13,885 nt of DNA from Pseudobacteriovorax sp. (GCA_050293845.1 JBNKNM010000150.1:1-13885); one strand, 5' to 3'. Positions 3,431-13,885 are shown, counted from the stretch's first letter. Numbers and translations are program-made. Notes: generated from the sequence alone by a model not told the origin.

Positions 3431-6115
3431 ATGTTGTTGACCAAAACTCCATTACTTTTAAGCTTGGTTATCGCTACATATGCTAGTGCTTATCCTCAGG
3501 CTCATGACTCCGGGAATTCCTTAAAAGCGGAAACTCTTCACTGTGCCAAAGAATTAAGTTGTTTTTTACGTAGTGAGTCACTAGAGCAAACGGTTAAAAT
3601 TAGAGGTGACTGGCTAATATTCTGGAAGCAATTACTTACTCCAAAACAATTTGAAGCTGCATTACAAAAATCTGGAAGAGAAATCCGGACGCTAAGTTTA
3701 TCATTTGTGCAAGATTTTAGTGATGTTGCCAAGGATGGTCATGGTTATATTACGGTTCAGAAAGAATTAATCTTTGAAAAATCGCAAAATATAGCTATGT
3801 TTTTTCCTACTACTTCATCTGCGCGCAAGGTATGGCTTAATGATAATTTGATATTAGAACAAGGGGTTGTTGGTCGCAGCTTTGAGGAAGAAACCCTAGG
3901 TACAAAGAGTGAATCGATACGTACTTTTGCTCACGCTGGAGTTAACAAGCTTACGATTCAAATTTCAAATTTTCACCATTTTTATGGTGGTCACACCAGA
4001 AATATAATAATCGGAACACCATCTCAAATAGATCTTTTAATGAATAAGATGACAACCAATGATGCTCTTAGTATTGGTGCTATTTTGATCATGACCTTCT
4101 ACCATCTTTATTTATGGATCATTCGTAGAACAGATATGGGCAGTCTATTCTTTTCATTTTTTTGTGCCAGTATCGGCATTCGTTCCATAGCTATGGGAGG
4201 GGCTCAACTACTGCATCAATTTATTAACGGCAGTGAAGGAGTCCTATTAAGAGTAAAATTAGAGTATTTTGGATTTTCTTTTGGAGCGTTGATGATTGGA
4301 ATGTTCATGCATTCTCAGTTTTATAAGGAATACAACAAATGGGTAGCGACTATAGGCGGAGTTCCTTTTGGTGTATGGACTCTAGTAATCATTTTTACAT
4401 CCCCAAATTTTTTCCCCAAATGGCTTACTTTTTTTCAATTTTGGACCGTTGGTTTTGGAATTGTTGGTATTTTAGCGCTGATCTTAGCTATTTTAAGAAA
4501 GCGAGATGGTGCCGGGTTATCATTACTAGGGTTCGGTATATTTTTTGTTTGTGTAACGCACGATATTCTAAGGGCTTTAGGGACTATTGAAAGTTCTATG
4601 GAAATTACTCAATTAGGACTATTTATGTTCCTGTTTTTTCAATCAACTATTCTAGCTTATCGTTTTAATAAATCTTTCATCAAATTAGACCATGCAGAAA
4701 GAGAAATTAGGTCACTTAACCTGAGTCTAGAAAAGAAGGTTGAAGAACGCACCAAGCAAATCAACACTATACTGTCCAATGTACAGTCAGGTTTTTTAAT
4801 CATTTCTGAAAATTGTATAATCCAACCCGGATTTACCCAGTCATGCCATGAGTTATTAGATGTTGAAATAACGCTAGGGATCTCGTGTATAAAGTACTTT
4901 CAAACAAACCCACGAGATGAAGAGCTTTTTCGGAGTGCTGTTATTCAGACTTTTCATGACATTATGCCTGAAAGTGTGAATTTAGCACAGATCCCTAATA
5001 GGATGAAATCGCGTAATAATCGGATATTATCAATCTTGTACTCTGTAATACGTGATAATGAAACAAAAAAGGTAGATGGTATTTTATTGACAATAAATGA
5101 TGCTTCTAGCCTCGTTCAAGCTGAAGAACAGGTTATGAAATCTCAAATTATCGTAAAGATTTTGCAAAACAAAGCAAGCTTTGATGGTTTCGTGCAAGAT
5201 TTTGAGAAAAATTGTACATTAGCCCTTAAACTTCTTATCGAAAATTCGCAGCCAGGAGTTCGTTCGATATTACACACCCTTAAAGGCAATGTTGCCACCT
5301 TTGGTTTCAAACGGACAGTAGACCTTATTCATCAGATTGAAGATAAAGTCACAATTTCAACAAAAGATATATCTGTTATTAAAGACTCACTTATGTCTTC
5401 TATTGATGAATTTAAGGAAATACTCGACTTTAACCAAGAATCCAAAATTCTTATTCCAAGAAATGAGGTCATGCAGTATATTGCTTTGATGAAAAAATCT
5501 AGTGATAAAAAAATTGCCAGTACCATTATCAATAATCTCAGCAAACATACCCTTGCAAAGGCCAAAGAAATTTTGGGTCCCATAGAAGATATGGTTTCTG
5601 TAATGGGTGAAAGGCTTGAAAAAGAAATTCAATTAGACTTTCGTGGAAAAAACTGCCCCATTAATCAAGAACATACAGAAGTGGTAAGAAATGTTATTCA
5701 TTTAATTCGAAACTCAATTGATCATGGTATTGAAGAATCTTATCATCGTCATCCCAAAGATTCCACTGGTCATATCTATCTTGTGTTCAACCGTTTCGAT
5801 TCAGAAATGAAAATTGAAATTGCTGACGATGGCAAAGGGATCGATACTCATTACTTGTATCAGCTGGCTGTGGAAAGAAAGATAATAGATATAAAAGAGA
5901 TGTCTGAATCTGATAAAGAGAATTTAATTTTTCATCCAGGATTATCAACTACAATTAAAAATACTGATCTTTCTGGTAGAGGTATAGGTATGTACTCTAT
6001 CAAGAAAGCTATCGATGAGGTTGGTGGTAAAATTACAGTTGAAAATCGTCCGCTTCAAGGGTGTACATTCTTAATTACCCTTCCGTTTAAAAAAGATATC
6101 CAACTTGCTATCTGA
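3431..6115 (+). CDS. Membrane sensor histidine kinase: signal peptide, extracellular beta-sandwich, 7TM-DISM, coiled coil/PAS-like region, HPt, CheA-like HATPase
   Basis: N-terminal signal peptide; IRGDWLIFWKQLL...KVWLND...NKLTIQISNFHHFYGG extracellular domain; seven hydrophobic helices ending in LAYRF (7TM-DISM type); LEKKVEERT helix; HPt motif LHTLKGN; CheA-type boxes HLIRNSIDHGIE, ADDGKGID, FHPGLST, SGRGIGM, GCTFLITLP. Confidence 0.88.
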   Translation: MLLTKTPLLLSLVIATYASAYPQAHDSGNSLKAETLHCAKELSCFLRSESLEQTVKIRGDWLIFWKQLLTPKQFEAALQKSGREIRTLSLSFVQDFSDVAKDGHGYITVQKELIFEKSQNIAMFFPTTSSARKVWLNDNLILEQGVVGRSFEEETLGTKSESIRTFAHAGVNKLTIQISNFHHFYGGHTRNIIIGTPSQIDLLMNKMTTNDALSIGAILIMTFYHLYLWIIRRTDMGSLFFSFFCASIGIRSIAMGGAQLLHQFINGSEGVLLRVKLEYFGFSFGALMIGMFMHSQFYKEYNKWVATIGGVPFGVWTLVIIFTSPNFFPKWLTFFQFWTVGFGIVGILALILAILRKRDGAGLSLLGFGIFFVCVTHDILRALGTIESSMEITQLGLFMFLFFQSTILAYRFNKSFIKLDHAEREIRSLNLSLEKKVEERTKQINTILSNVQSGFLIISENCIIQPGFTQSCHELLDVEITLGISCIKYFQTNPRDEELFRSAVIQTFHDIMPESVNLAQIPNRMKSRNNRILSILYSVIRDNETKKVDGILLTINDASSLVQAEEQVMKSQIIVKILQNKASFDGFVQDFEKNCTLALKLLIENSQPGVRSILHTLKGNVATFGFKRTVDLIHQIEDKVTISTKDISVIKDSLMSSIDEFKEILDFNQESKILIPRNEVMQYIALMKKSSDKKIASTIINNLSKHTLAKAKEILGPIEDMVSVMGERLEKEIQLDFRGKNCPINQEHTEVVRNVIHLIRNSIDHGIEESYHRHPKDSTGHIYLVFNRFDSEMKIEIADDGKGIDTHYLYQLAVERKIIDIKEMSESDKENLIFHPGLSTTIKNTDLSGRGIGMYSIKKAIDEVGGKITVENRPLQGCTFLITLPFKKDIQLAI

Positions 6116-6126
6116 ATTCATAAGAG

Positions 6127-6206
6127 GTGTAAGGTCTTAAGGATTTAAAAGGCTTACACAAATACTAGAGCTGAATTGACTTGGTACTACCATTGTGAAG
6201 TGGTAG
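6127..6206. terminator. Two hairpins between convergent genes; possible (bidirectional) terminator or 3' stabiliser
   Basis: GTGTAAG(G)TCTT...AAGGCTTACAC (6127-6159) and CTACCAT-TGTGAA-GTGGTAG (6187-6206). No clear U-tract follows either. Confidence 0.3.
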
Positions 6207-6229
6207 CTGCGCAAACCAGATCCGTTACT

Positions 6230-6856
6230 TCAATCGATTTGATAAATGGCTTCGATTTCCTTTAAAATTTTAGGAAAGTTGATTTTGAAATCTTTAAGCC
6301 GACCCGTATAAGTATCAAAAACCCAGCCATGTAATTTTAAACCTTTTTCTCGCATTGCTTTTTGGACAACGGCATTTTTAACTAGGTTGACACATTGCTC
6401 CTGAACATTTAGTTCAACTAATCGATTACGACGTTGCTGCTCGTCCTTGATCTCTAAGAGCTCATGTTTATACAGACGAAAGACGTCACGGATATTTCTC
6501 AGCCAAGGATTGATGACTCCCAAGTCCCTAGTTTCCAGAGCAGCTTGGATGCCACCACAACCATAGTGGCCGCACACCACCGCATGTTCAACATTCAAAT
6601 GCTCAATGGCATAGTTGATAACACTCATGGAATTGAGGTCAATATTCACAACTAAGTTAGCAATATTACGGTGTACAAAGACTTCACCTGGTTCAGCGCC
6701 CATCATTTCTTCGGCGGTCACACGGCTATCGGAACAACCAATATAGAGCAGTTTAGGATTTTGTCCCTGACCCAGCTTTTTAAAGTAATCCGGATCAAGA
6801 TTGAGCTTTTTTGTAACCCACTTTTCATTGTTAGCAAGAAATTTTTTAACTCTCAT
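6230..6856 (-). CDS. can: Beta-class carbonic anhydrase
   Basis: GQNPKLLYIGCSDSRV, GEVFVHRNIAN, VVCGHYGCGG (Cys/His/Cys Zn ligands), ELNVQEQ, LHGWVFD. Start at ATG 6856 (AAGAG upstream); ATG 6877 is an alternative. Confidence 0.93.
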   Translation of the reverse strand: MRVKKFLANNEKWVTKKLNLDPDYFKKLGQGQNPKLLYIGCSDSRVTAEEMMGAEPGEVFVHRNIANLVVNIDLNSMSVINYAIEHLNVEHAVVCGHYGCGGIQAALETRDLGVINPWLRNIRDVFRLYKHELLEIKDEQQRRNRLVELNVQEQCVNLVKNAVVQKAMREKGLKLHGWVFDTYTGRLKDFKINFPKILKEIEAIYQID

Positions 6857-7149
6857 AGGGATCTCTTTGTTAAACATTTAGGCACGTATTTGGTTAGACG
6901 CCAGCAAATCGCCATAATCTGCTAAAAGTGGAGTCAAATTACAAGAGATATATTGCGGCAGTTGTTGGGTTCGTGCTGGAGACATCAAGGTCTTTATGGG
7001 AAAATGGGACAGTGAAAGCCGGATAATTTTATTATATCAATAATATTAGGAGAGTAAAGATTAGGAATTTGAGAAATATTGACATTATCATGATAAGTCT
7101 TCCTACCTTCTAGTCGTCTAGGCTTACGAAAATATATAATTATTCTCAA

Positions 7150-7176
7150 TCAATATGCCCCGACTAATTCCGAATA
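7150..7176 (+). promoter_or_regulatory. Sigma-28 (FliA)-like promoter of the response regulator
   Basis: TCAA(7150-7153)-N15-TCCGAATA(7169-7176), with canonical spacing and 33 nt upstream of the ATG. Confidence 0.45.
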
Positions 7177-7209
7177 CTAATAAGTCGTAATGAGTATGAT
7201 GAGATTACT

Positions 7210-7968
7210 ATGTTTCAGGCTTTATTAATTGAAAAAGATCAAGAGTGGCTTGATAAGCTTGAAGAAGCCTTGTTTTCCATGAACTTTGAGTGCCTCGTAG
7301 CTACCAGTGAAGACGCAGCGCGATCCTATATTGAGAAACGTGGAAAAAGCATTGGAATTATTTTCGCTTGCTTAGATAAGGAGCGACTTGACGGCATGGC
7401 AGCTGCTGCCATCCAATATAACTTAGGGTTTTACCGGCCTATCATCGGTATTACTAATAAGTCTAGTCAAACGGGAAATAGGAGGGAAAGACTCGATATC
7501 AATGGATTATTAGGGCCCGAAATCAAACAAATGGATCTCAGAAATATGATCGATAGAATTTTTTGGGAGCATCATGAAGCAGTTAGGAACCGCTCAAGAA
7601 CACCTATTGTTCTTATTGTTGAAGATGATGATATGCAATCAAGTCTACTTGTGAGCCGATTGATTAAGACAGGGGTAGAACCCTATGTTGCTGTGAACGG
7701 TCTTAAGGGCTTAGAAGAAGTGAAAAGATTATCACCTCAATTGATCATTATGGACATTAACATGCCGATAATGGATGGTTTTACTTTGGTGCGACTGCTC
7801 AAAGACTCCAGAGTAACCAAAAATATTCCTGTCATTGGAGTAAGCGCATCGGCTTCAGAAACAGAGTGCCTCAGAGCAGGGTGCGATCTGTTCTTTGTTA
7901 AGCCTTATAGCAAAAAATTGATAAGTAAAATTAAAGACTTACTCTCGGAAATGGCGCAAGCATCCTAA
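7210..7968 (+). CDS. Response regulator with two receiver domains (degenerate N-terminal REC plus canonical CheY-like REC) and no output domain
   Basis: C-terminal REC: VLIVEDD, LIIMDINMPIMDG, IPVIGVSA, GCDLFFVKP. The N-terminal half has the REC pattern (ALLIEKD...IGIIFAC...PIIGIT...INGLLGP) but lacks the phospho-Asp and the conserved Lys. Confidence 0.88.
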   Translation: MFQALLIEKDQEWLDKLEEALFSMNFECLVATSEDAARSYIEKRGKSIGIIFACLDKERLDGMAAAAIQYNLGFYRPIIGITNKSSQTGNRRERLDINGLLGPEIKQMDLRNMIDRIFWEHHEAVRNRSRTPIVLIVEDDDMQSSLLVSRLIKTGVEPYVAVNGLKGLEEVKRLSPQLIIMDINMPIMDGFTLVRLLKDSRVTKNIPVIGVSASASETECLRAGCDLFFVKPYSKKLISKIKDLLSEMAQAS

Positions 7969-7991
7969 TGAAGTCTCCCGAAATCTGGTCG

Positions 7992-8420
7992 TTACCAGTC
8001 AACCTTCCAATAAACCAAAATAGATTTACCGCTCATGGTTGAAGAAATCGCCTTAAAATCCATATCTTTAAGTGATAGCTCAGCGCAAACGGGAAGTTCT
8101 TGACCAATTGCTTTGATATGGCTCAAGCTTCCATTTTTTTCTAAAGTTGCGGTTAAAGAAACGGAAAAGGGGCTGGCTCTCCAGCGACGCAAGCATGGCT
8201 CTAAACTGATCTTTGATTGACGTTTAAATATAACCATAAATCGATCTTTGTCGATACCGAGTAGATCCGATGTTGCCATTTGTTTTTTTTTCCACCGCTC
8301 CATGGGAGGATTTTGGGAAGATGCAAAGGGTTTTTTATGATTTCGTAGGCCTTTAGGTTCGTCCCCGATAATGCAGGCCCATAATATTCCCCAAATGAAT
8401 AAAATTAGTTTATAATTCAT
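7992..8420 (-). CDS. Small N-terminally anchored protein with a TonB-C / AgmX-PglI C-terminal-like domain (142 aa)
   Basis: Start re-called at ATG 8420, overlapping the upstream stop. Hydrophobic N-terminus, Pro/Lys linker, then helix with Cys (SLEPCLRRW), strand SVSLTATLEKNGSLSHI, helix with Cys (PVCAELSLKDMDF) and terminal strand ILVYWKVDW. Confidence 0.55.
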   Translation of the reverse strand: MNYKLILFIWGILWACIIGDEPKGLRNHKKPFASSQNPPMERWKKKQMATSDLLGIDKDRFMVIFKRQSKISLEPCLRRWRASPFSVSLTATLEKNGSLSHIKAIGQELPVCAELSLKDMDFKAISSTMSGKSILVYWKVDW

Positions 8421-10092
8421 CTTTGGTCCACACAATCCAATCGTTACTGTTATAACTTTTAGGAAATGCGACAAGAGGCATGAGAGGAGGAGACAGCGAG
8501 GAATCCCATTTAAAAGGTATGGAAATCTCTGCATTCTTATTAAGTTTTACCACACCTAAGTTTTGCACTCCCTGTAAAACCTGCTCCATACCTTGGCTTT
8601 CCTTAGTCTTCATCAACTTTAGGTAAAAATTATAGATTTTTTCTAATCGAGGAGTATGGTGATGTGATTTTAAACATTTTGCTACCAGACTTTGAAAAGG
8701 TTGCAACTTGATACGGTATTGATCCCTTAAACCTATGATGTGCGTCGTAATCTTTTCTATAAATCTAATATCAAAATGTCTCATTCGCTTTCGCGAACAC
8801 ATAATACTCAATAAATGATCTACATGCTGAAGATTGCGTTTTGCTAGTGATTCGAGGATATGAAGATGATGATTGTGGCGTCTTTTGTAGCGGTAAGATT
8901 CTTTAGTAAAATTTAATAAATTATGGAAAGCAAGCTGGTCACCAGTGAGAGCAAGTTCAATTAACATTTCTTCTGCCAACTTGTTCCAAGTGTGCCTGGG
9001 TAGTGACTTGCGAACAACACCTGCTAACACTTTTTCAAAGCGATACTCGATTAAGATGTCATGTGCTATTTTAGTAGCTGATGCAATAATAGGATTATTG
9101 TTCTGTGCTTCATTTAACAACAGCAATCTGCGAATAATGTTTAATGCATCAAGAAATTTACCGCTTTGATAAGCCATTGATGCTTGCTCGTGAAGCGTAA
9201 AATCACGAAAATTATCAATTTTAACCAAGTGGTTAATTAATTTAGATTTATTCTCAAATGAGATTTGATTATAATTTATTAACCCTAACCACTGGGCTGA
9301 TAAAATATGATGGGAATTTAAAATAATACTTAAAATAAACTGAAAAGGTTTACTACCCGGTGCATAAGGAGGAGGATTAATAAATGATTCGTTTATGAGT
9401 TGTTCCCATAAAAAAACTTGCTCTTCAAACTTGAGAAAATTCCAGTGACTTAACTTTAGTGGGATAAACTTTCTTAGTATGTTGTGCCTTAATTCTTTTA
9501 AATCTTTATTTTCCCGTGTCAGCCATAATATTCTTATATATACTGATTCTTCGTAGCTGATAGGTAATCTCTTAGGGTGGCGGTACCATTCTATTAAATG
9601 TTCAAGTTCATAATCTTTCGCACTTTTATGATTTCTTAGGCGACTGCTTAACCAGTAACAACCTTGTTGTTGTAGTAATTGTGTTTCTGCTATTTCATCA
9701 AGATAAGGTAGTAAATTACTATTGAAGTGGTATTGCTTTTCTTTATTGGGATGGTAGAAATACGGATCATTATTGTATGGTCTGTGTTGAAACTGCAGGT
9801 GATATCGATAGATATATGCAGAAAGTAATAGGTCAAAAGGAATATCTTCAGTATCAATGAGTGGGCAGGAACGAGCCATAGCCATGGTTAAGTGGGAAAG
9901 ATAGTTTTGATGAGATAGATTGATTTTAAGGCGTTGACTTAAAATAAGAAGGCGCCAGGCTTCATTAGGGTTGCTTTGTAATATGTGGTATTTTATTCCA
10001 TTTTTAATACGGGTTTCTATGGTAGCTTTACTCTGCCCAGCAAGCAGTAGTGCTATAATACTACAAAAGAACCAACTACGAATTGCATCCAA
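8410..10092 (-). CDS. Exported, largely alpha-helical (TPR-like) hypothetical protein, 560 aa
   Basis: Signal peptide MDAIRSWFFCSIIALLLAGQSKA, amphipathic helical repeats, and a TPR-like segment HEQASMAYQSGKFLDALNIIRRLL. Overlaps both neighbours. Confidence 0.7.
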   Translation of the reverse strand: MDAIRSWFFCSIIALLLAGQSKATIETRIKNGIKYHILQSNPNEAWRLLILSQRLKINLSHQNYLSHLTMAMARSCPLIDTEDIPFDLLLSAYIYRYHLQFQHRPYNNDPYFYHPNKEKQYHFNSNLLPYLDEIAETQLLQQQGCYWLSSRLRNHKSAKDYELEHLIEWYRHPKRLPISYEESVYIRILWLTRENKDLKELRHNILRKFIPLKLSHWNFLKFEEQVFLWEQLINESFINPPPYAPGSKPFQFILSIILNSHHILSAQWLGLINYNQISFENKSKLINHLVKIDNFRDFTLHEQASMAYQSGKFLDALNIIRRLLLLNEAQNNNPIIASATKIAHDILIEYRFEKVLAGVVRKSLPRHTWNKLAEEMLIELALTGDQLAFHNLLNFTKESYRYKRRHNHHLHILESLAKRNLQHVDHLLSIMCSRKRMRHFDIRFIEKITTHIIGLRDQYRIKLQPFQSLVAKCLKSHHHTPRLEKIYNFYLKLMKTKESQGMEQVLQGVQNLGVVKLNKNAEISIPFKWDSSLSPPLMPLVAFPKSYNSNDWIVWTKDEL

Positions 10093-10760
10093 TATTTTAA
10101 CCGTCCTTCACTGTTAATAGGGATTCCAAGCGATGGTTCGAAAGTTAAACCGTAAGAATTTGGTAAGTATAAGTTCCACTTTAACCCAAGTTCTAAAGTG
10201 AATCGTGGCGTCATCGGATCTTGTCCGGGAAAACGAGCTATAGATTCTTTAATGGCGAGAGTTGTCCGATTCAAGTAGTGATTATAGGATATTCCTGCAA
10301 AGCCGAATAATGCAAATTCTATGTCACTTATTGTGGGACTTAAGCGTGTTATCGCACGACCTTCCATGATACTCAGCAAACCTTGAAAAGATAGTTGATA
10401 TCGGTTGGTTCCAGAGCGCTGTTTAAAGGGGGTTCGTCCAACAAGGTTTGATGATGGGGTCGGCCAGTAATTGACTCGTGCTAAGGCTATGCGATAAGAG
10501 AAGCCATTAGGATTTAAAAAAATGAAACCTATACCTGAAATATTGTTTTCAAAATTATTTTGCTCATCTAAATAGCCATATATCAGGTCAATTTCGTAGT
10601 CATCGACGCGCCAATCATATTGATGCTTTGAAGTAGTTTTTTGTATGACATCTTTTAATATAGAAATGCTTGAAAACTGCTTTTTCAAATCAACTTCTGC
10701 AAACAATAAGTTATGATATAGTATCACCATTATGATTGGTAGTATGTGCTGTACTTTCAT
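10053..10760 (-). CDS. Predicted outer-membrane beta-barrel protein (235 aa)
   Basis: Start re-called at ATG 10760 (ATGA overlap with the upstream stop). Signal peptide ending LLFA; alternating-hydrophobic strands YEIDLIYGY, SGIGFIF, FSYRIALARV, YQLSFQGLL, FALFGFAGISY, FTLELGLKWNLY, YGLTFEP, WMQFVVG. Confidence 0.65.
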   Translation of the reverse strand: MKVQHILPIIMVILYHNLLFAEVDLKKQFSSISILKDVIQKTTSKHQYDWRVDDYEIDLIYGYLDEQNNFENNISGIGFIFLNPNGFSYRIALARVNYWPTPSSNLVGRTPFKQRSGTNRYQLSFQGLLSIMEGRAITRLSPTISDIEFALFGFAGISYNHYLNRTTLAIKESIARFPGQDPMTPRFTLELGLKWNLYLPNSYGLTFEPSLGIPINSEGRLKYWMQFVVGSFVVL

Positions 10761-12781
10761 AGCTCGTTCCATATAGGGTATATAGAAGAGGGACATACTG
10801 CTGTGCTTTGACTAACCCAACGGGATCTTAATTGGTATGCTCCTGTTTCATCATAATAGGGATGGTCACAATATTGTGTACACTTCTGCGTTAAACTTCC
10901 AAAATCCCAATTCTCCGTTAACCAAATTTCATCCCCTAAAGTTTGTAGAGCCGAAGCTCCTTGAGAAAAGGGAATCACGCTTACAATTTCTCCTGTAAGA
11001 CTAGTGTCGTAGTCGATAGCTGCCCAATAGGGGAAGCTCCAGGAGATGCCAATGAGATATTCATCCTCTGCATTGTTACTTAACCACGCTTCGTTGATCG
11101 TCTGATTATCGTAGAGAGTCCCCGATTTTCCCTCTGATACACGACGAAATCTGAAGGGGAGATCCGTGTAACTGCAGAATCTAGCACGTTCCCCTGAGCT
11201 AATCGTATAGCGTACCCCTTGAAAGTATGTAATCCTATTGCTGTCATCAATTTCAGTATTGGCATCAATAGGGACACTTTGCATGATCAATTTAGGGTTT
11301 CGTGCTAAACCTTCATCATTATATGTATTAACATATTCATTGTAGGCATCAAGAGATGGTAGAGGTCCTAAGGGAGCGACAAAGTTAATGACTTGAAGAT
11401 CAAGATCTACAGAACCAAATATGGTACAATTTTCTTCAGCAAGAGGTATATTCAGAGTATCCTGACTAAGAAGCTGTTGAGGGCACCATATGATGTAGCT
11501 TTGTTGCATGAAATTAGGTAGAAAGTTACCAATGGAATCATAAACAAAAGACCCTACTAAGCGCGGTGATGTGTAACTAGTCTCTAGTTGAGCTAATTCA
11601 TAAAGAGTTTGTGCCATTGATTCTTGTTTGGTAAAAAATTCAGTTGATAGTTGGTGATGAAAGAGAACCACAAATGCAAGATCAAGATTCAGTGGATTAT
11701 TTAATTTAGCTGTATTTAACTTAGACTCAGCAATAACTCTAAAGTCATAAGCAAACTGCGTATCATCCAAAGAGTAAAAGCATAAATCTACTTCGAATGG
11801 CGTACCGAGTATGAATTTTTGATAATTAAAAAAGCGATCATCATAGATGAGGTTATAGTTGATATCATCTTCACATGCTTTGATAATAATAGGGATTTGT
11901 AGAATCTCCTGGAGTGGTGTTGTGAGCACTTGACTACCTGTTGAAATAATAGGATTTCTTAAAGCTATTCCTTGTACGCCGCTCAAAAGCACACTTTGAT
12001 TTTGATCTAAAAAATCCATTAAAAAGCAAAAACCATTCTTTGGATCAGAGGAAGGAAAGATGTCTTGGAGCCAGCTAGTATGATCAGAGATCGTGACGGC
12101 TTGGTTTAATACTGGTACCGTATTGCAGAGGGAGGATGGAAAAACGATATTGTTGCCGCCAGTAGTAGCCCTGTCTTGTTCGACTGATGATAGGGGCAAG
12201 TTTGCTAAAGTTCCGTTGGTAACACGGAAGTTACGCTCCATGCCGTACCTAGATATCTCAGATGTAGAAAGGTCTCCAAAATTATCGACGACCTGAATTC
12301 GTATGTGCTCATTTATTTCGTCAAAACTGCCATAGGCAAGAGCACTAAAGGAACTAAACAATTCAGTGCTACGATGATTTGAAACAATCATTTCTTTTTC
12401 AATCGCAAATCCTGAAGCGTTATCATAGCGAAAGCGCAATGTAGCTCTGTTTAGTGGATAATCTAGAGAAAAACTGTAACTTCCGCAAATTTTGTATTCA
12501 CCACAGTCTACAAGACGGTGGAGATGTACACCCTGAGAAAAGTCAATATTGCTGATTTCTGTAAGTTGAATACCTCCGTCTAAGGTTTCATGGCTATATG
12601 ATAGATCCCATCTGGGATCAATTAATCTTGCTTTTTTCTCTGCAAGACTAAAAAAAATATACGCTGTCTTTTCATTTTCAAACCAATGAATATTGGCAAA
12701 GCTGATTGATCCATAGTCTAAATCAAGGGGAACTTTTCCACAATTTATAAGGAATAGACTAAATAAAATGATAAGCTTCAT
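10757..12781 (-). CDS. Large cysteine-rich predicted lipoprotein, 674 aa, function unknown
   Basis: Short signal MKLIILFSLFLIN-C with Cys14 as the likely lipidation site, 12 further Cys, beta-rich acidic sequence, and ATGA overlaps at both ends. Confidence 0.75.
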   Translation of the reverse strand: MKLIILFSLFLINCGKVPLDLDYGSISFANIHWFENEKTAYIFFSLAEKKARLIDPRWDLSYSHETLDGGIQLTEISNIDFSQGVHLHRLVDCGEYKICGSYSFSLDYPLNRATLRFRYDNASGFAIEKEMIVSNHRSTELFSSFSALAYGSFDEINEHIRIQVVDNFGDLSTSEISRYGMERNFRVTNGTLANLPLSSVEQDRATTGGNNIVFPSSLCNTVPVLNQAVTISDHTSWLQDIFPSSDPKNGFCFLMDFLDQNQSVLLSGVQGIALRNPIISTGSQVLTTPLQEILQIPIIIKACEDDINYNLIYDDRFFNYQKFILGTPFEVDLCFYSLDDTQFAYDFRVIAESKLNTAKLNNPLNLDLAFVVLFHHQLSTEFFTKQESMAQTLYELAQLETSYTSPRLVGSFVYDSIGNFLPNFMQQSYIIWCPQQLLSQDTLNIPLAEENCTIFGSVDLDLQVINFVAPLGPLPSLDAYNEYVNTYNDEGLARNPKLIMQSVPIDANTEIDDSNRITYFQGVRYTISSGERARFCSYTDLPFRFRRVSEGKSGTLYDNQTINEAWLSNNAEDEYLIGISWSFPYWAAIDYDTSLTGEIVSVIPFSQGASALQTLGDEIWLTENWDFGSLTQKCTQYCDHPYYDETGAYQLRSRWVSQSTAVCPSSIYPIWNEL

Positions 12782-13500
12782 GGGATGACCCCCATAAAAT
12801 TTGACGTATCATTTACAATGATTTCATTACGGCTATTGATTCCCTCTTCTGTGGGATCAATTATACGAATAAACGTACCATCATGTGTCGAAGGCTTGTT
12901 CAATAGCTTTCTCCATTCTTGAATAAATCCGGTTTTTTGTTGATCTATAACGAAATGATGGTAGGAGCGAGCATCGATACCGCGATTTTTAAACTCTTTC
13001 CAGGCAAACCAGTCATCTTCAAAAGTGGCTATATTTTGGGATTGCTCTGCATTTCCCCAGAAAATAGCTTTAATATGGAGAATAGGTAAATTTCCTTCCA
13101 ATTCAGGAGCATTGTCATCGCTACCCCACGGATTTGATGAATTAGCCATGGTTTGAATAACATTAGTGTTTAGGCAGTTTTCTGTTGATATGATAATATC
13201 ATTTTGTACAAATTTGATTGTTCTCTGGCTTAGACTAGTCGCCATTGTTATGTTTCTTAAATCCCATTCGCGCTCTCGATAAGTAGCTGTTGCGCTATTG
13301 GTAAAACATCCCGTGTTATGAATGGCATCATCACTAAGATATATCGCTTGGTATAGAATATAATCAAATTCGGATATAGATTCCTCTGGCTGATCAATCG
13401 AATCAGGGGTATCTTGATCCAATGGGCTAAAACCCTCATAGCAACTTTGAAAAATCATAAAAAATATTAGCAAAGTATTAATTTTTAAGAATTTTTTCAT
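12778..13500 (-). CDS. Predicted lipoprotein, 240 aa, function unknown
   Basis: MKKFLKINTLLIFFMIFQS-C lipoprotein signal, acidic Pro/Asp linker after the Cys, two more Cys, and a strong AAGGAG Shine-Dalgarno at 13505-13510 (minus strand). Confidence 0.8.
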   Translation of the reverse strand: MKKFLKINTLLIFFMIFQSCYEGFSPLDQDTPDSIDQPEESISEFDYILYQAIYLSDDAIHNTGCFTNSATATYREREWDLRNITMATSLSQRTIKFVQNDIIISTENCLNTNVIQTMANSSNPWGSDDNAPELEGNLPILHIKAIFWGNAEQSQNIATFEDDWFAWKEFKNRGIDARSYHHFVIDQQKTGFIQEWRKLLNKPSTHDGTFIRIIDPTEEGINSRNEIIVNDTSNFMGVIP

Positions 13501-13885
13501 TAATCTCCTTCAAATTAAGATGCTGAAAGCGATTTTTGTTTTGTAAAAATACTTTAATCTTACGTTTAGCTCGATCAACCAGGCTTTGATCTTGCAATAT
13601 CTGAGGAGTTTGAAATTCTTGAATGTGCTCTTTTAATCTAGGGTTTAATTGTTGCAGGATTTCGCTACCCCAGATAAATTGCCCCAAATATGCTGCTGAT
13701 TCTTCAGGAGTTAGGGCTAAAAAAGTATCTGTAAGAATGGGGTTCGGTAGCATCCTAATGGATTCATCCAAAAAAATATGCCCGGCTAAGTAGTTCACGA
13801 TGTTAGGGTCTTGGGCTAAGATATGATTGATAAAATCCTGTCTATGATTATCTTTAAGTGAATTTATAACATCTCCATAGATTTG
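13478..13885 (-). CDS. 3' part of a gene running off the window; C-terminus resembles the FliG C-terminal domain
   Basis: The frame is open from 13885 (29 extra codons, QIYGDVINSLKDNHRQDFINHILAQDPNI, before the listed GTG). The pattern QDPNIVNYLAGHIFLDESIRMLPNPIL...AAYL...EILQQLNPRLKEHIQE...DQSLVDRAKRKIKVFL...LNL follows the FliG-C helix pattern (DP.LA..I...MF.FEDL..L.D..I...LA.AL...IL.NMS.R....I.EE...V..AQ..I). Confidence 0.55.
   Translation of the reverse strand, partial: QIYGDVINSLKDNHRQDFINHILAQDPNIVNYLAGHIFLDESIRMLPNPILTDTFLALTPEESAAYLGQFIWGSEILQQLNPRLKEHIQEFQTPQILQDQSLVDRAKRKIKVFLQNKNRFQHLNLKEINEKILKN

Follow-up and report, generated by a model that had tools for sequence, protein, structure and literature searches.

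The DNA analyzed here, called the window, is the whole 13,885-bp contig C150 (JBNKNM010000150.1) of Pseudobacteriovorax sp., whose genome assembly spans 6.68 Mb in 741 contigs and is 96.4% complete. Six minus-strand open reading frames (ORFs), O1 to O6, occupy positions 7992 to 13885. A preliminary description took them for a six-gene operon; we find instead that they form the distal (3′) part of a cluster of 10 to 14 genes, and that O6 is only the end of a longer gene, encoding protein F. The upstream part of this cluster encodes a MotA/MotB stator of flagellar type, and F is FliG-like. In the reading that we consider probable, the six ORFs are the distal half (the C-terminus of F, followed by proteins G to K) of a conserved Oligoflexia cluster for a non-flagellar rotor-stator envelope machine. 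A more specific proposal, whose chances we place a little below even, is that this machine is a self-contained rotary motor in which MotAB turns a ring of a one-piece FliF/FliG-like protein, coupled to about nine novel envelope parts and without a flagellar axial structure.

A Conserved Cluster of 10 to 14 Genes

The six ORFs lie at 13478-13885 (O6), 12778-13500 (O5), 10757-12781 (O4), 10053-10796 (O3), 8410-10092 (O2), and 7992-8534 (O1), with the 5′ end of O6 open at the contig edge. The longest frames place the starts of O3 and O1 at 10796 and 8534; alignments of homologues favor ATG codons at 10760 (MKVQ..., which creates an ATGA overlap) and 8420 (MNYK...). Given these two starts, the overlaps of 23, 4, 4, 40, and 11 nt first reported between successive genes are reproduced. 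Other genomes hold homologues of all six ORFs in an identical arrangement (tblastn E 1e-11 to 1e-169), and because protein-level homologues keep this order, the six ORFs are far beyond chance. A search with O4 recovered relatives in 15 of 61 related genomes. All six genes appear in the same order in five related loci, and contig ends cut the set in two more. The synteny of homologues across genomes, which the preliminary description had left to be checked, is thus borne out.

Upstream of this set, the related loci carry five co-directional genes, which encode A (a lipoprotein), B, C, and D (each with a signal peptide), and E (a TPR lipoprotein), as well as a full-length F of ~540-585 aa, of which O6 represents the last 135 aa. 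A divergent unit encodes MotA (Pfam MotA_ExbB) and MotB (MotB_plug and OmpA). In the Pseudobacteriovorax genome itself, this upstream half is found on contig C80, which begins inside F, carries its N-terminal 400 aa at C80:1-1200 on the minus strand, and reads F N-terminal part, E, D, C, B, A, and then the divergent MotA, MotB, and a PEGA lipoprotein. When aligned to the 572-aa F of locus L015, residues 11-433 correspond to C80:1209-1 and residues 442-568 to the window. A search for an exact sequence overlap of the C150 end with the C80 start found none, so the junction between the two contigs is placed by the F alignment.

Two gene orders can be distinguished. The 14-gene form (type 1) has the divergent genes for the PEGA-domain protein, MotB, and MotA, followed on the other strand by A B C D E F G H I J K, and is carried by the Pseudobacteriovorax genome, eight complete loci, and two truncated loci. 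The PEGA-domain protein is present in the divergent unit of our genome and of seven of the eight complete type 1 loci, and was undetected in L015. The 10-gene form (type 2) runs on one strand as C D E MotA MotB F H I J (K), with the stator genes inside the operon between E and F; it is represented by seven loci, three of them from another order of the class. Nine genes, encoding C, D, E, MotA, MotB, F, H, I, and J, are common to both forms, with protein identities of 20-45% across at least two orders of the class. H adjoins I in all 17 loci from other genomes, and F is present in 16 of them, the exception being a contig that starts after F. MotA and MotB are found in 15 of the 17; the two exceptions, contigs of 8102 and 6593 bp, stop short of these genes. 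In one type 1 locus (L057), B, J, and K gave no tblastn match. The same two gene orders recur in 13 loci from named records, mostly Oligoflexales or Oligoflexus; these may overlap the 17 loci and are not counted as extra evidence. One locus, that of Oligoflexus tunisiensis Shr3 (L032), carries the 10-gene form. Across the phylum, H was found in 31 of 131 genomes, one of which (G061) gives a weak partial match (E 2.9e-9).

A Stator of Flagellar Type

The preliminary description suggested that genes for MotA, TolQ, or ExbB might be found upstream, and flagellar-type MotA and MotB are indeed encoded on C80 and in all related loci that are long enough. A profile built from eight cluster MotA proteins has ten PDB matches at E ≤ 0.01, and all ten are MotA or PomA (E 2.4e-20 to 1.1e-6); neither ExbB nor TolQ is among them. 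In NCBIfam, the best matches of cluster MotA are PomA (2.8e-17), MotP, and MotA, all below the equivalog cut-offs, and TolQ reaches E 7e-4 and 19.4 bits against a cut-off of 221. The cluster MotA proteins are ~240-270 aa in length and have no long tail. MotB of the Pseudobacteriovorax genome contains the Pfam domains MotB_plug (49.6 bits) and OmpA (52.1 bits), together with an SYADLVTNL motif that includes the channel Asp. Judged by its sequence, the cluster stator is of the flagellar type rather than the TolQR/ExbBD type. By the criteria of PMC12505986, these are flagellar and not "generic" stator features, and that paper treats MotAB/PomAB-type stators with a plug and an OmpA anchor as diagnostic of flagella.

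Protein F Resembles FliG

The second component is F. The window holds the part encoded by O6 (13478-13885), which is cut by the contig end and includes the FliG C-terminal (torque) domain with a hinge-like IFLDES motif and an LNPRL helix. A profile of nine full-length F proteins and the O6 fragment was compared with the PDB. Its four best matches are all FliG (1lkv_X at E 5e-7, then 4fhr_B, 3ajc_A, and 3hjl_A, to 4e-3), the other eight have E ≥ 0.2, and the match to 1lkv_X spans FliG residues 5-221. The Pfam FliG_C model scores above its cut-off of 23.3 with F of L017 (25.8 bits) and with the N-terminal part of our own F (27.0 bits). An AlphaFold 2 (AF2) model of an F orthologue (mean predicted local distance difference test score, pLDDT, 75.5) predicts a signal peptide, then in the periplasm an alpha-beta-beta-alpha-beta domain (residues 40-145), a transmembrane helix (171-205), and an all-helical cytoplasmic region (236-567). 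In a Foldseek search with this model, FliG takes every one of ranks 1-13. With VIA, full-length FliG scores Z 12.1 over 289 residues, FliG_M scores Z 9.2 (root mean square deviation, rmsd, 2.2; 80/80), FliG_C of 1qc7_B scores Z 9.2 (rmsd 2.4; 86/89), and FliG_C of the stator-bound FliG 8ucs_H scores Z 9.0. Because the F profile, Foldseek, and VIA all match FliG or FliG_C, we conclude that O6 encodes the torque-domain end of F; the label FliG-C-like, given earlier to O6 alone, is confirmed by these searches and by Pfam FliG_C.

Taken together, the profile and the model indicate that F is a single-pass inner-membrane protein with predicted cytoplasmic FliG-like N, M, and C domains. The invariant Phe in the IFLDES motif of O6 aligns with the MFxF hinge of FliG, and the LNPRL helix aligns with its torque helix. 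As modeled, the periplasmic domain would be compatible with a FliF-like ring-building domain; for the likeness to FliF, Foldseek gives E 0.17. A four-copy complex prediction of this domain scored 0.10 against a mark of 0.42 and carries no evidence either way. A word-indexed search returned 27 relatives of F at E ≤ 1e-5, most of them unnamed and two automatically named FliG.

Envelope Proteins of the Cluster

The remaining proteins are those of the cell envelope. Among the 11 non-motor proteins, A to K, 10 carry a lipobox, a signal peptide, or an anchor, and the eleventh, F, has a signal peptide and a transmembrane helix. In the window, export signals and lipoboxes were read by eye, with a Kyte-Doolittle scan for the former. 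Lipoboxes are present in O5 and O4, signal peptides in O3 and O2, and an N-terminal hydrophobic anchor in O1, in agreement with the earlier claim that five of the six ORFs bear export or anchor signals. That none of the six has an enzyme motif is likewise upheld: Pfam gives no match for any of them, and NCBIfam gives three matches, all at chance level and all to O6. Profile searches of the PDB with C, D, G, H, I, J, and K returned nothing below E 0.1.

G (O5, 12778-13500) is a 240-aa lipoprotein found in the 14-gene form only, preceded by a good ribosome binding site (GAAGGAGA). Its mature chain starts with a conserved CYEG(W/F), and around the FQSC|Y lipobox all 8 of the 8 sequences share Cys20, Y21, E22, and G23. 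Neither Pfam nor NCBIfam contains a match to G. H (O4, 10757-12781), a lipoprotein of 674 aa, is the best-conserved protein of the window; the Cys of its LINC|G lipobox is kept in at least 90% of 50 sequences. Its AF2 model, from a 50-sequence alignment (pLDDT 89.3, predicted TM score 0.78), shows Ig/FN3-like beta-sandwiches at the N terminus, an alpha/beta domain in the middle, and additional beta domains. Searches of this model with Foldseek and VIA, in which only residues 22-142 were well tested, gave only generic Ig/FN3-like and multi-sandwich matches (TM ~0.1; best Z 7.5), and therefore assign no fold-based function to H. At E ≤ 1e-3, 142 of 1.84 billion cluster representatives belong to the family. 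Twelve conserved Cys residues of H are invariant or nearly so, and a VHxH motif is located at residues 85-88, inside the first Ig-like domain. The cysteines and this motif could reflect disulfide-stapled domains or a metal site.

I (O3, 10053-10760) is a secreted protein of ~235 aa with a signal peptide, described earlier as an outer-membrane beta-barrel. Its homologues end in aromatic-rich strands of the G-x-x-W/Y-x-F type. Language-model features in the ESM Atlas place it, at 0.95-0.96, near clusters of Bdellovibrionota and Fibrobacterota and near OMP_b-brl, DUF2715, and HP_OMP clusters, and on these features I is probably a small outer-membrane barrel. Pfam and profile comparisons do not add to the barrel label: Pfam has no match, and hhalign against the OMP_b-brl domains of the same genome gives a probability of 0.6%. 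J (O2, 8410-10092) is a secreted protein of 560 aa with a signal peptide and is probably an all-helical repeat protein. Both cluster types have it: against the protein at the same position in locus L016, hhalign gives a probability of 87% and E 4e-6. The earlier TPR-like label is not confirmed as given: the PPR/TPR-like look-alikes in the Atlas are weak, with all scores <0.9.

K (O1, 7992-8420) is ~142 aa long. A hydrophobic anchor lies at its N terminus, and its conserved C-terminal domain, ~85 aa in size, contains two invariant Cys residues and ends in W..(D/E/S)W. It had been called TonB-C-like. An hhalign comparison of the K alignment with eight TonB_C domains of the same genome places 45 columns in register, at a statistically weak probability of 3.1% and E 0.014; the Pfam TonB_C model does not match O1, and none of its nine matches in the genome falls in the window. 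Against the 193-aa protein at the K position of L016, hhalign gives a probability of 0.2%.

Of the proteins that belong to no known family, C (C80:2762-3877) and D (C80:1830-2768) are the best conserved. Each has an invariant CxxC in its N-terminal half, and the last residues of C, GMGVVVRW, form a C-terminal strand typical of OMP-like proteins. No Pfam family matches either protein.

Proposed Mechanism

What the data establish are the genes of the cluster and their linkage in a kept order, the homologies of the two stator proteins and of F, the export signals, and, with confidence, a fold of several domains for H. From these we propose how the components might act together. Ion flow would turn MotA around MotB in MotAB units anchored to peptidoglycan, and MotA would push the FliG_C-like domain of F. 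F, which we infer to be oligomerized in the membrane, probably as a ring, would rotate or be driven. The alpha-beta-beta-alpha-beta fold predicted for its periplasmic domain is of a class that ring-building motifs such as FliF RBM3 also use. Through protein contacts that we likewise infer, this domain would pass the motion to the TPR lipoprotein E, the periplasmic proteins C, D, and J, the lipoproteins G and H, the anchored K, and the probable barrel I, and mechanical work would be done in the periplasm or at the cell surface. As for the output, our guess is surface motility, adhesin transport, secretion, prey contact, or envelope remodeling. The preliminary description envisaged a trans-envelope complex, possibly one that runs on the proton motive force (PMF), a view that gains support from the flagellar-type MotA/MotB in the upstream part and from the FliG-like F.

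Relation to the Flagellum and Alternative Explanations

Several observations weigh against an independent rotary machine. In the F profile alignment, the EHPQR-type FliM-binding motif of FliG is not kept. The torque helix (LNPRL) retains Arg alone as a conserved residue, in the 14-gene form, and the stator-rotor charge interface is therefore putative. The F periplasmic domain aligns with FliF RBM3 at Z 8.7 and 8.5, no better than with unrelated ferredoxin-like domains (Z 9.2 for the MamM C-terminal domain and 8.8 for OsmC), so a ring-building role of this domain is not established. The genome G001, of the same genus and 94% complete, yielded no H, and the system is therefore dispensable. Within the phylum, FlhA is also present in 30 of the 31 H-bearing genomes, and H is found in 1 of 19 FlhA-negative genomes (G076, 91% complete, 460 contigs); these counts come from related genomes, which are not independent, and as they stand they do not show independence from the flagellum.

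G076 (contigs C266 and C430) is the sole H genome that lacks an FlhA match. It is a possible flagellum-free carrier, but in view of its completeness and its number of contigs it is too weak a case to show independence from flagella.

The same co-occurrence would be expected if the cluster encoded an accessory of an ordinary flagellum, whether a lineage-specific scaffold, an extra ring, or an alternative rotor/stator set. Extra periplasmic disks and rings are known from some polar flagella, and both the stator and F are of flagellar type. The TPR, PEGA, and other lipoproteins resemble, as far as we know and in kind only, parts of the flagellar periplasmic scaffold. We nevertheless regard an accessory role as unlikely. 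The association with FlhA is weak, since 112 of the 131 genomes of the phylum are flagellated anyway, as judged by FlhA, and H is present in only 30 of these 112. Pfam scans of the window, of C80, and of the cluster genes of L012, L013, L015, L016, L017, and L019 found no family of the export, rod, hook, FliM, or FliN proteins, nor any further flagellar family; lacking an export apparatus, axial parts, and FliM/FliN, the cluster is not itself a flagellum. F, with its own signal peptide, transmembrane helix, and FliG N, M, and C domains, would duplicate FliF/FliG rather than decorate them. The same genome also has two canonical FliG genes, which score 140.8 and 97.3 bits, and a gene for FlhA (contig C48), all on contigs other than those of the cluster.

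An equally improbable alternative to the rotor-stator machine is a linear force transducer, in which MotAB spins no ring but pulls on or gates single molecules of F and K, as in ExbBD-TonB or AglRQS-Glt, and thereby powers the movement of the outer-membrane protein I or transport through it. The architecture of K, an anchor and a small C-terminal domain with weak in-register likeness to TonB_C, would suit such a device, as would the barrel candidate and the lipoproteins of the cluster. New PMF-driven transducer families beside the 5:2 motors are still emerging, according to PMC12204202. However, the cluster motor is MotA/PomA-type with plug and OmpA, not ExbBD/TolQR-type. Its partner has a full FliG-like region, the sole known role of which is that of a ring pushed tangentially by MotA. 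The lack of a Pfam TonB_C match to O1 argues in the same direction, and no TonB-dependent receptor family was found in the Pfam and NCBIfam scans.

A Zorya-like anti-phage system, or some other non-mechanical use of a MotAB-like channel, is very improbable. This reading was rejected because PADLOC gave generic ZorB matches alone, on MotB (best 1.1e-16), with ZorA, ZorC, and ZorD unmatched among the 15 cluster proteins; moreover, MotA has no long tail and matches flagellar stators, and all other cluster proteins are exported to the envelope. That the genes are merely neighbors without a common function is harder still to credit, as overlapping frames are frequent in compact genomes but the order here is kept at 20-45% identity in at least two orders of the class and in two forms with the same core.

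Genomic Context and Other FliG-like Modules

A promoter and terminator scan of positions 7000-13885 found sites to be no commoner than in shuffled sequence (21 vs 23.8; 3 vs 4.6). The GC content of the cluster part (7992-13885) is 0.37, compared with 0.41 for the genome. This value is near the 5th percentile (0.372) of contigs >5 kb, and a genomic island was not adopted as an explanation, because 0.37 is at the low edge of contig values and gives no clear signal.

Convergent to the 3′ end of the cluster, the plus strand of the window encodes a sensor kinase with 7TMR-DISM, Hpt, and HATPase domains (3431-6115) and a response regulator (7210-7968). In L015 and L016, too, a related kinase lies convergent to the cluster on its downstream side (34% identity over 378 aa in L015; 23% over 492 aa, in a 954-aa ORF, in L016), which suggests that the kinase may be a conserved regulator. 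The minus strand encodes a carbonic anhydrase of the beta class (Pfam Pro_CA, 175 bits) at 6230-6877, in the interval that separates the kinase from the response regulator.

Elsewhere in the genome, two further proteins have a signal peptide, a periplasmic domain, a transmembrane helix, and a FliG-like region. The first is encoded on contig C198 (L043), at 8736-10424, and is followed on the same minus strand by MotA (7949-8713), MotB with plug and OmpA (7303-7965), and a leucine-rich repeat protein (5695-6873). It has 562 aa, a signal peptide, a transmembrane helix at 199-217, and a FliG_C match of 24.8 bits, and MotA comes directly after it. The second, of 777 aa, is encoded on the minus strand of contig C18 (L044), at 8090-10423, and combines a signal peptide and a transmembrane helix (338-356) with FliG_M (33.9 bits) and FliG_C (46.7 bits). 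Its gene adjoins genes for a DsbA-like protein and an L,D-transpeptidase, ~2.4 kb from a pilMNOPQ cluster. BLAST gave no similarity between either of these proteins and F, from which they are too diverged.

Comparison with Known Systems

No wholesale match of the cluster to a characterized system, and no enzyme fold among its proteins, was found in the family libraries, solved structures, and literature searched. Full-text literature searches (supplements excluded) gave no description of the cluster in the text portions available, which concerned engineered FliF-FliG fusions and stators in general.

The closest known system is the flagellar motor core, which the cluster would resemble in its working where stator and FliG meet. 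Like the flagellar motor, the cluster has a stator A subunit that matches MotA/PomA structures only, and a B subunit with a plug, the Asp residue, and an OmpA-like anchor. The FliG-like N, M, and C domains of F superimpose at domain rmsd values of 2.2-2.5 Å, and the predicted topology of F (periplasmic alpha-beta domain, transmembrane helix, FliG) mirrors RBM3 and TM2 of FliF followed by FliG. In this respect, F resembles, from what is available on them, engineered FliF-FliG fusions, which reportedly still form rings. The differences are substantial. The cluster has no export gate, rod, hook, filament, P and L rings, FliM, or FliN, and F lacks RBM1 and RBM2 of FliF, its likeness to RBM3 being unspecific. 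The rotor and its membrane anchor are one polypeptide with a cleavable signal peptide, the identity between F and FliG is 12-19%, and the motor is accompanied by some nine envelope proteins that belong to no known family.

To our knowledge, no role has been described for FliG other than in the flagellum, where it forms the torque-receiving ring. If our reading is correct, FliG and MotAB joined to a dozen novel envelope proteins, with no other flagellar part, would constitute a new motor-driven machine, and the rotor-stator module would either have arisen from the flagellar motor core by exaptation or be related to the pre-flagellar ancestor of that core. The cluster thus offers a test case for the origin or reuse of the flagellar rotor-stator pair. 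It also gives a context to at least nine unannotated protein families (among A-E and G-K), and the cultured relative O. tunisiensis Shr3, with its 10-gene form, opens the idea to genetics and tomography.

Two other comparisons were suggested in the preliminary description. The Agl-Glt machinery of Myxococcus, as we know it, combines a PMF-driven motor with periplasmic TPR-type proteins, lipoproteins, outer-membrane barrels, and small anchored proteins encoded in one or two operons, and it occurs in a related lineage of predatory bacteria. Its motor, AglRQS, is TolQR-like without a peptidoglycan-binding domain, whereas the motor of the cluster is MotAB-type with a peptidoglycan anchor, and we know of no FliG-like protein in Agl-Glt. 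The Ton and Tol systems share with the cluster a 5:2-type ion motor, a candidate anchored transducer (K), and outer-membrane partners. They differ in that cluster MotA matches TolQ at E 7e-4 and PomA at 2.8e-17, and in that O1 has no TonB_C match; the Pfam and NCBIfam scans of the window ORFs found no TonB-dependent receptor, TolB, or Pal family. With a motor of the MotAB type rather than the TolQR/ExbBD type, the cluster resembles Agl-Glt and Ton/Tol only superficially.

GldLM, which serves gliding and the type IX secretion system of Bacteroidota, is, as we understand it, likewise an inner-membrane, ion-driven rotary unit that moves outer-membrane parts without a flagellum. No sequence relation to it was found, and torque in the cluster would be taken up in the cytoplasm by a FliG-like domain rather than by a periplasmic GldM shaft. 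PMC12204202 names GldLM among the 5:2 motors, and the list of users in the available portions of that paper contains no FliG-coupled non-flagellar system. If the cluster does encode such a system, the range of known 5:2 motor users would gain a new class.

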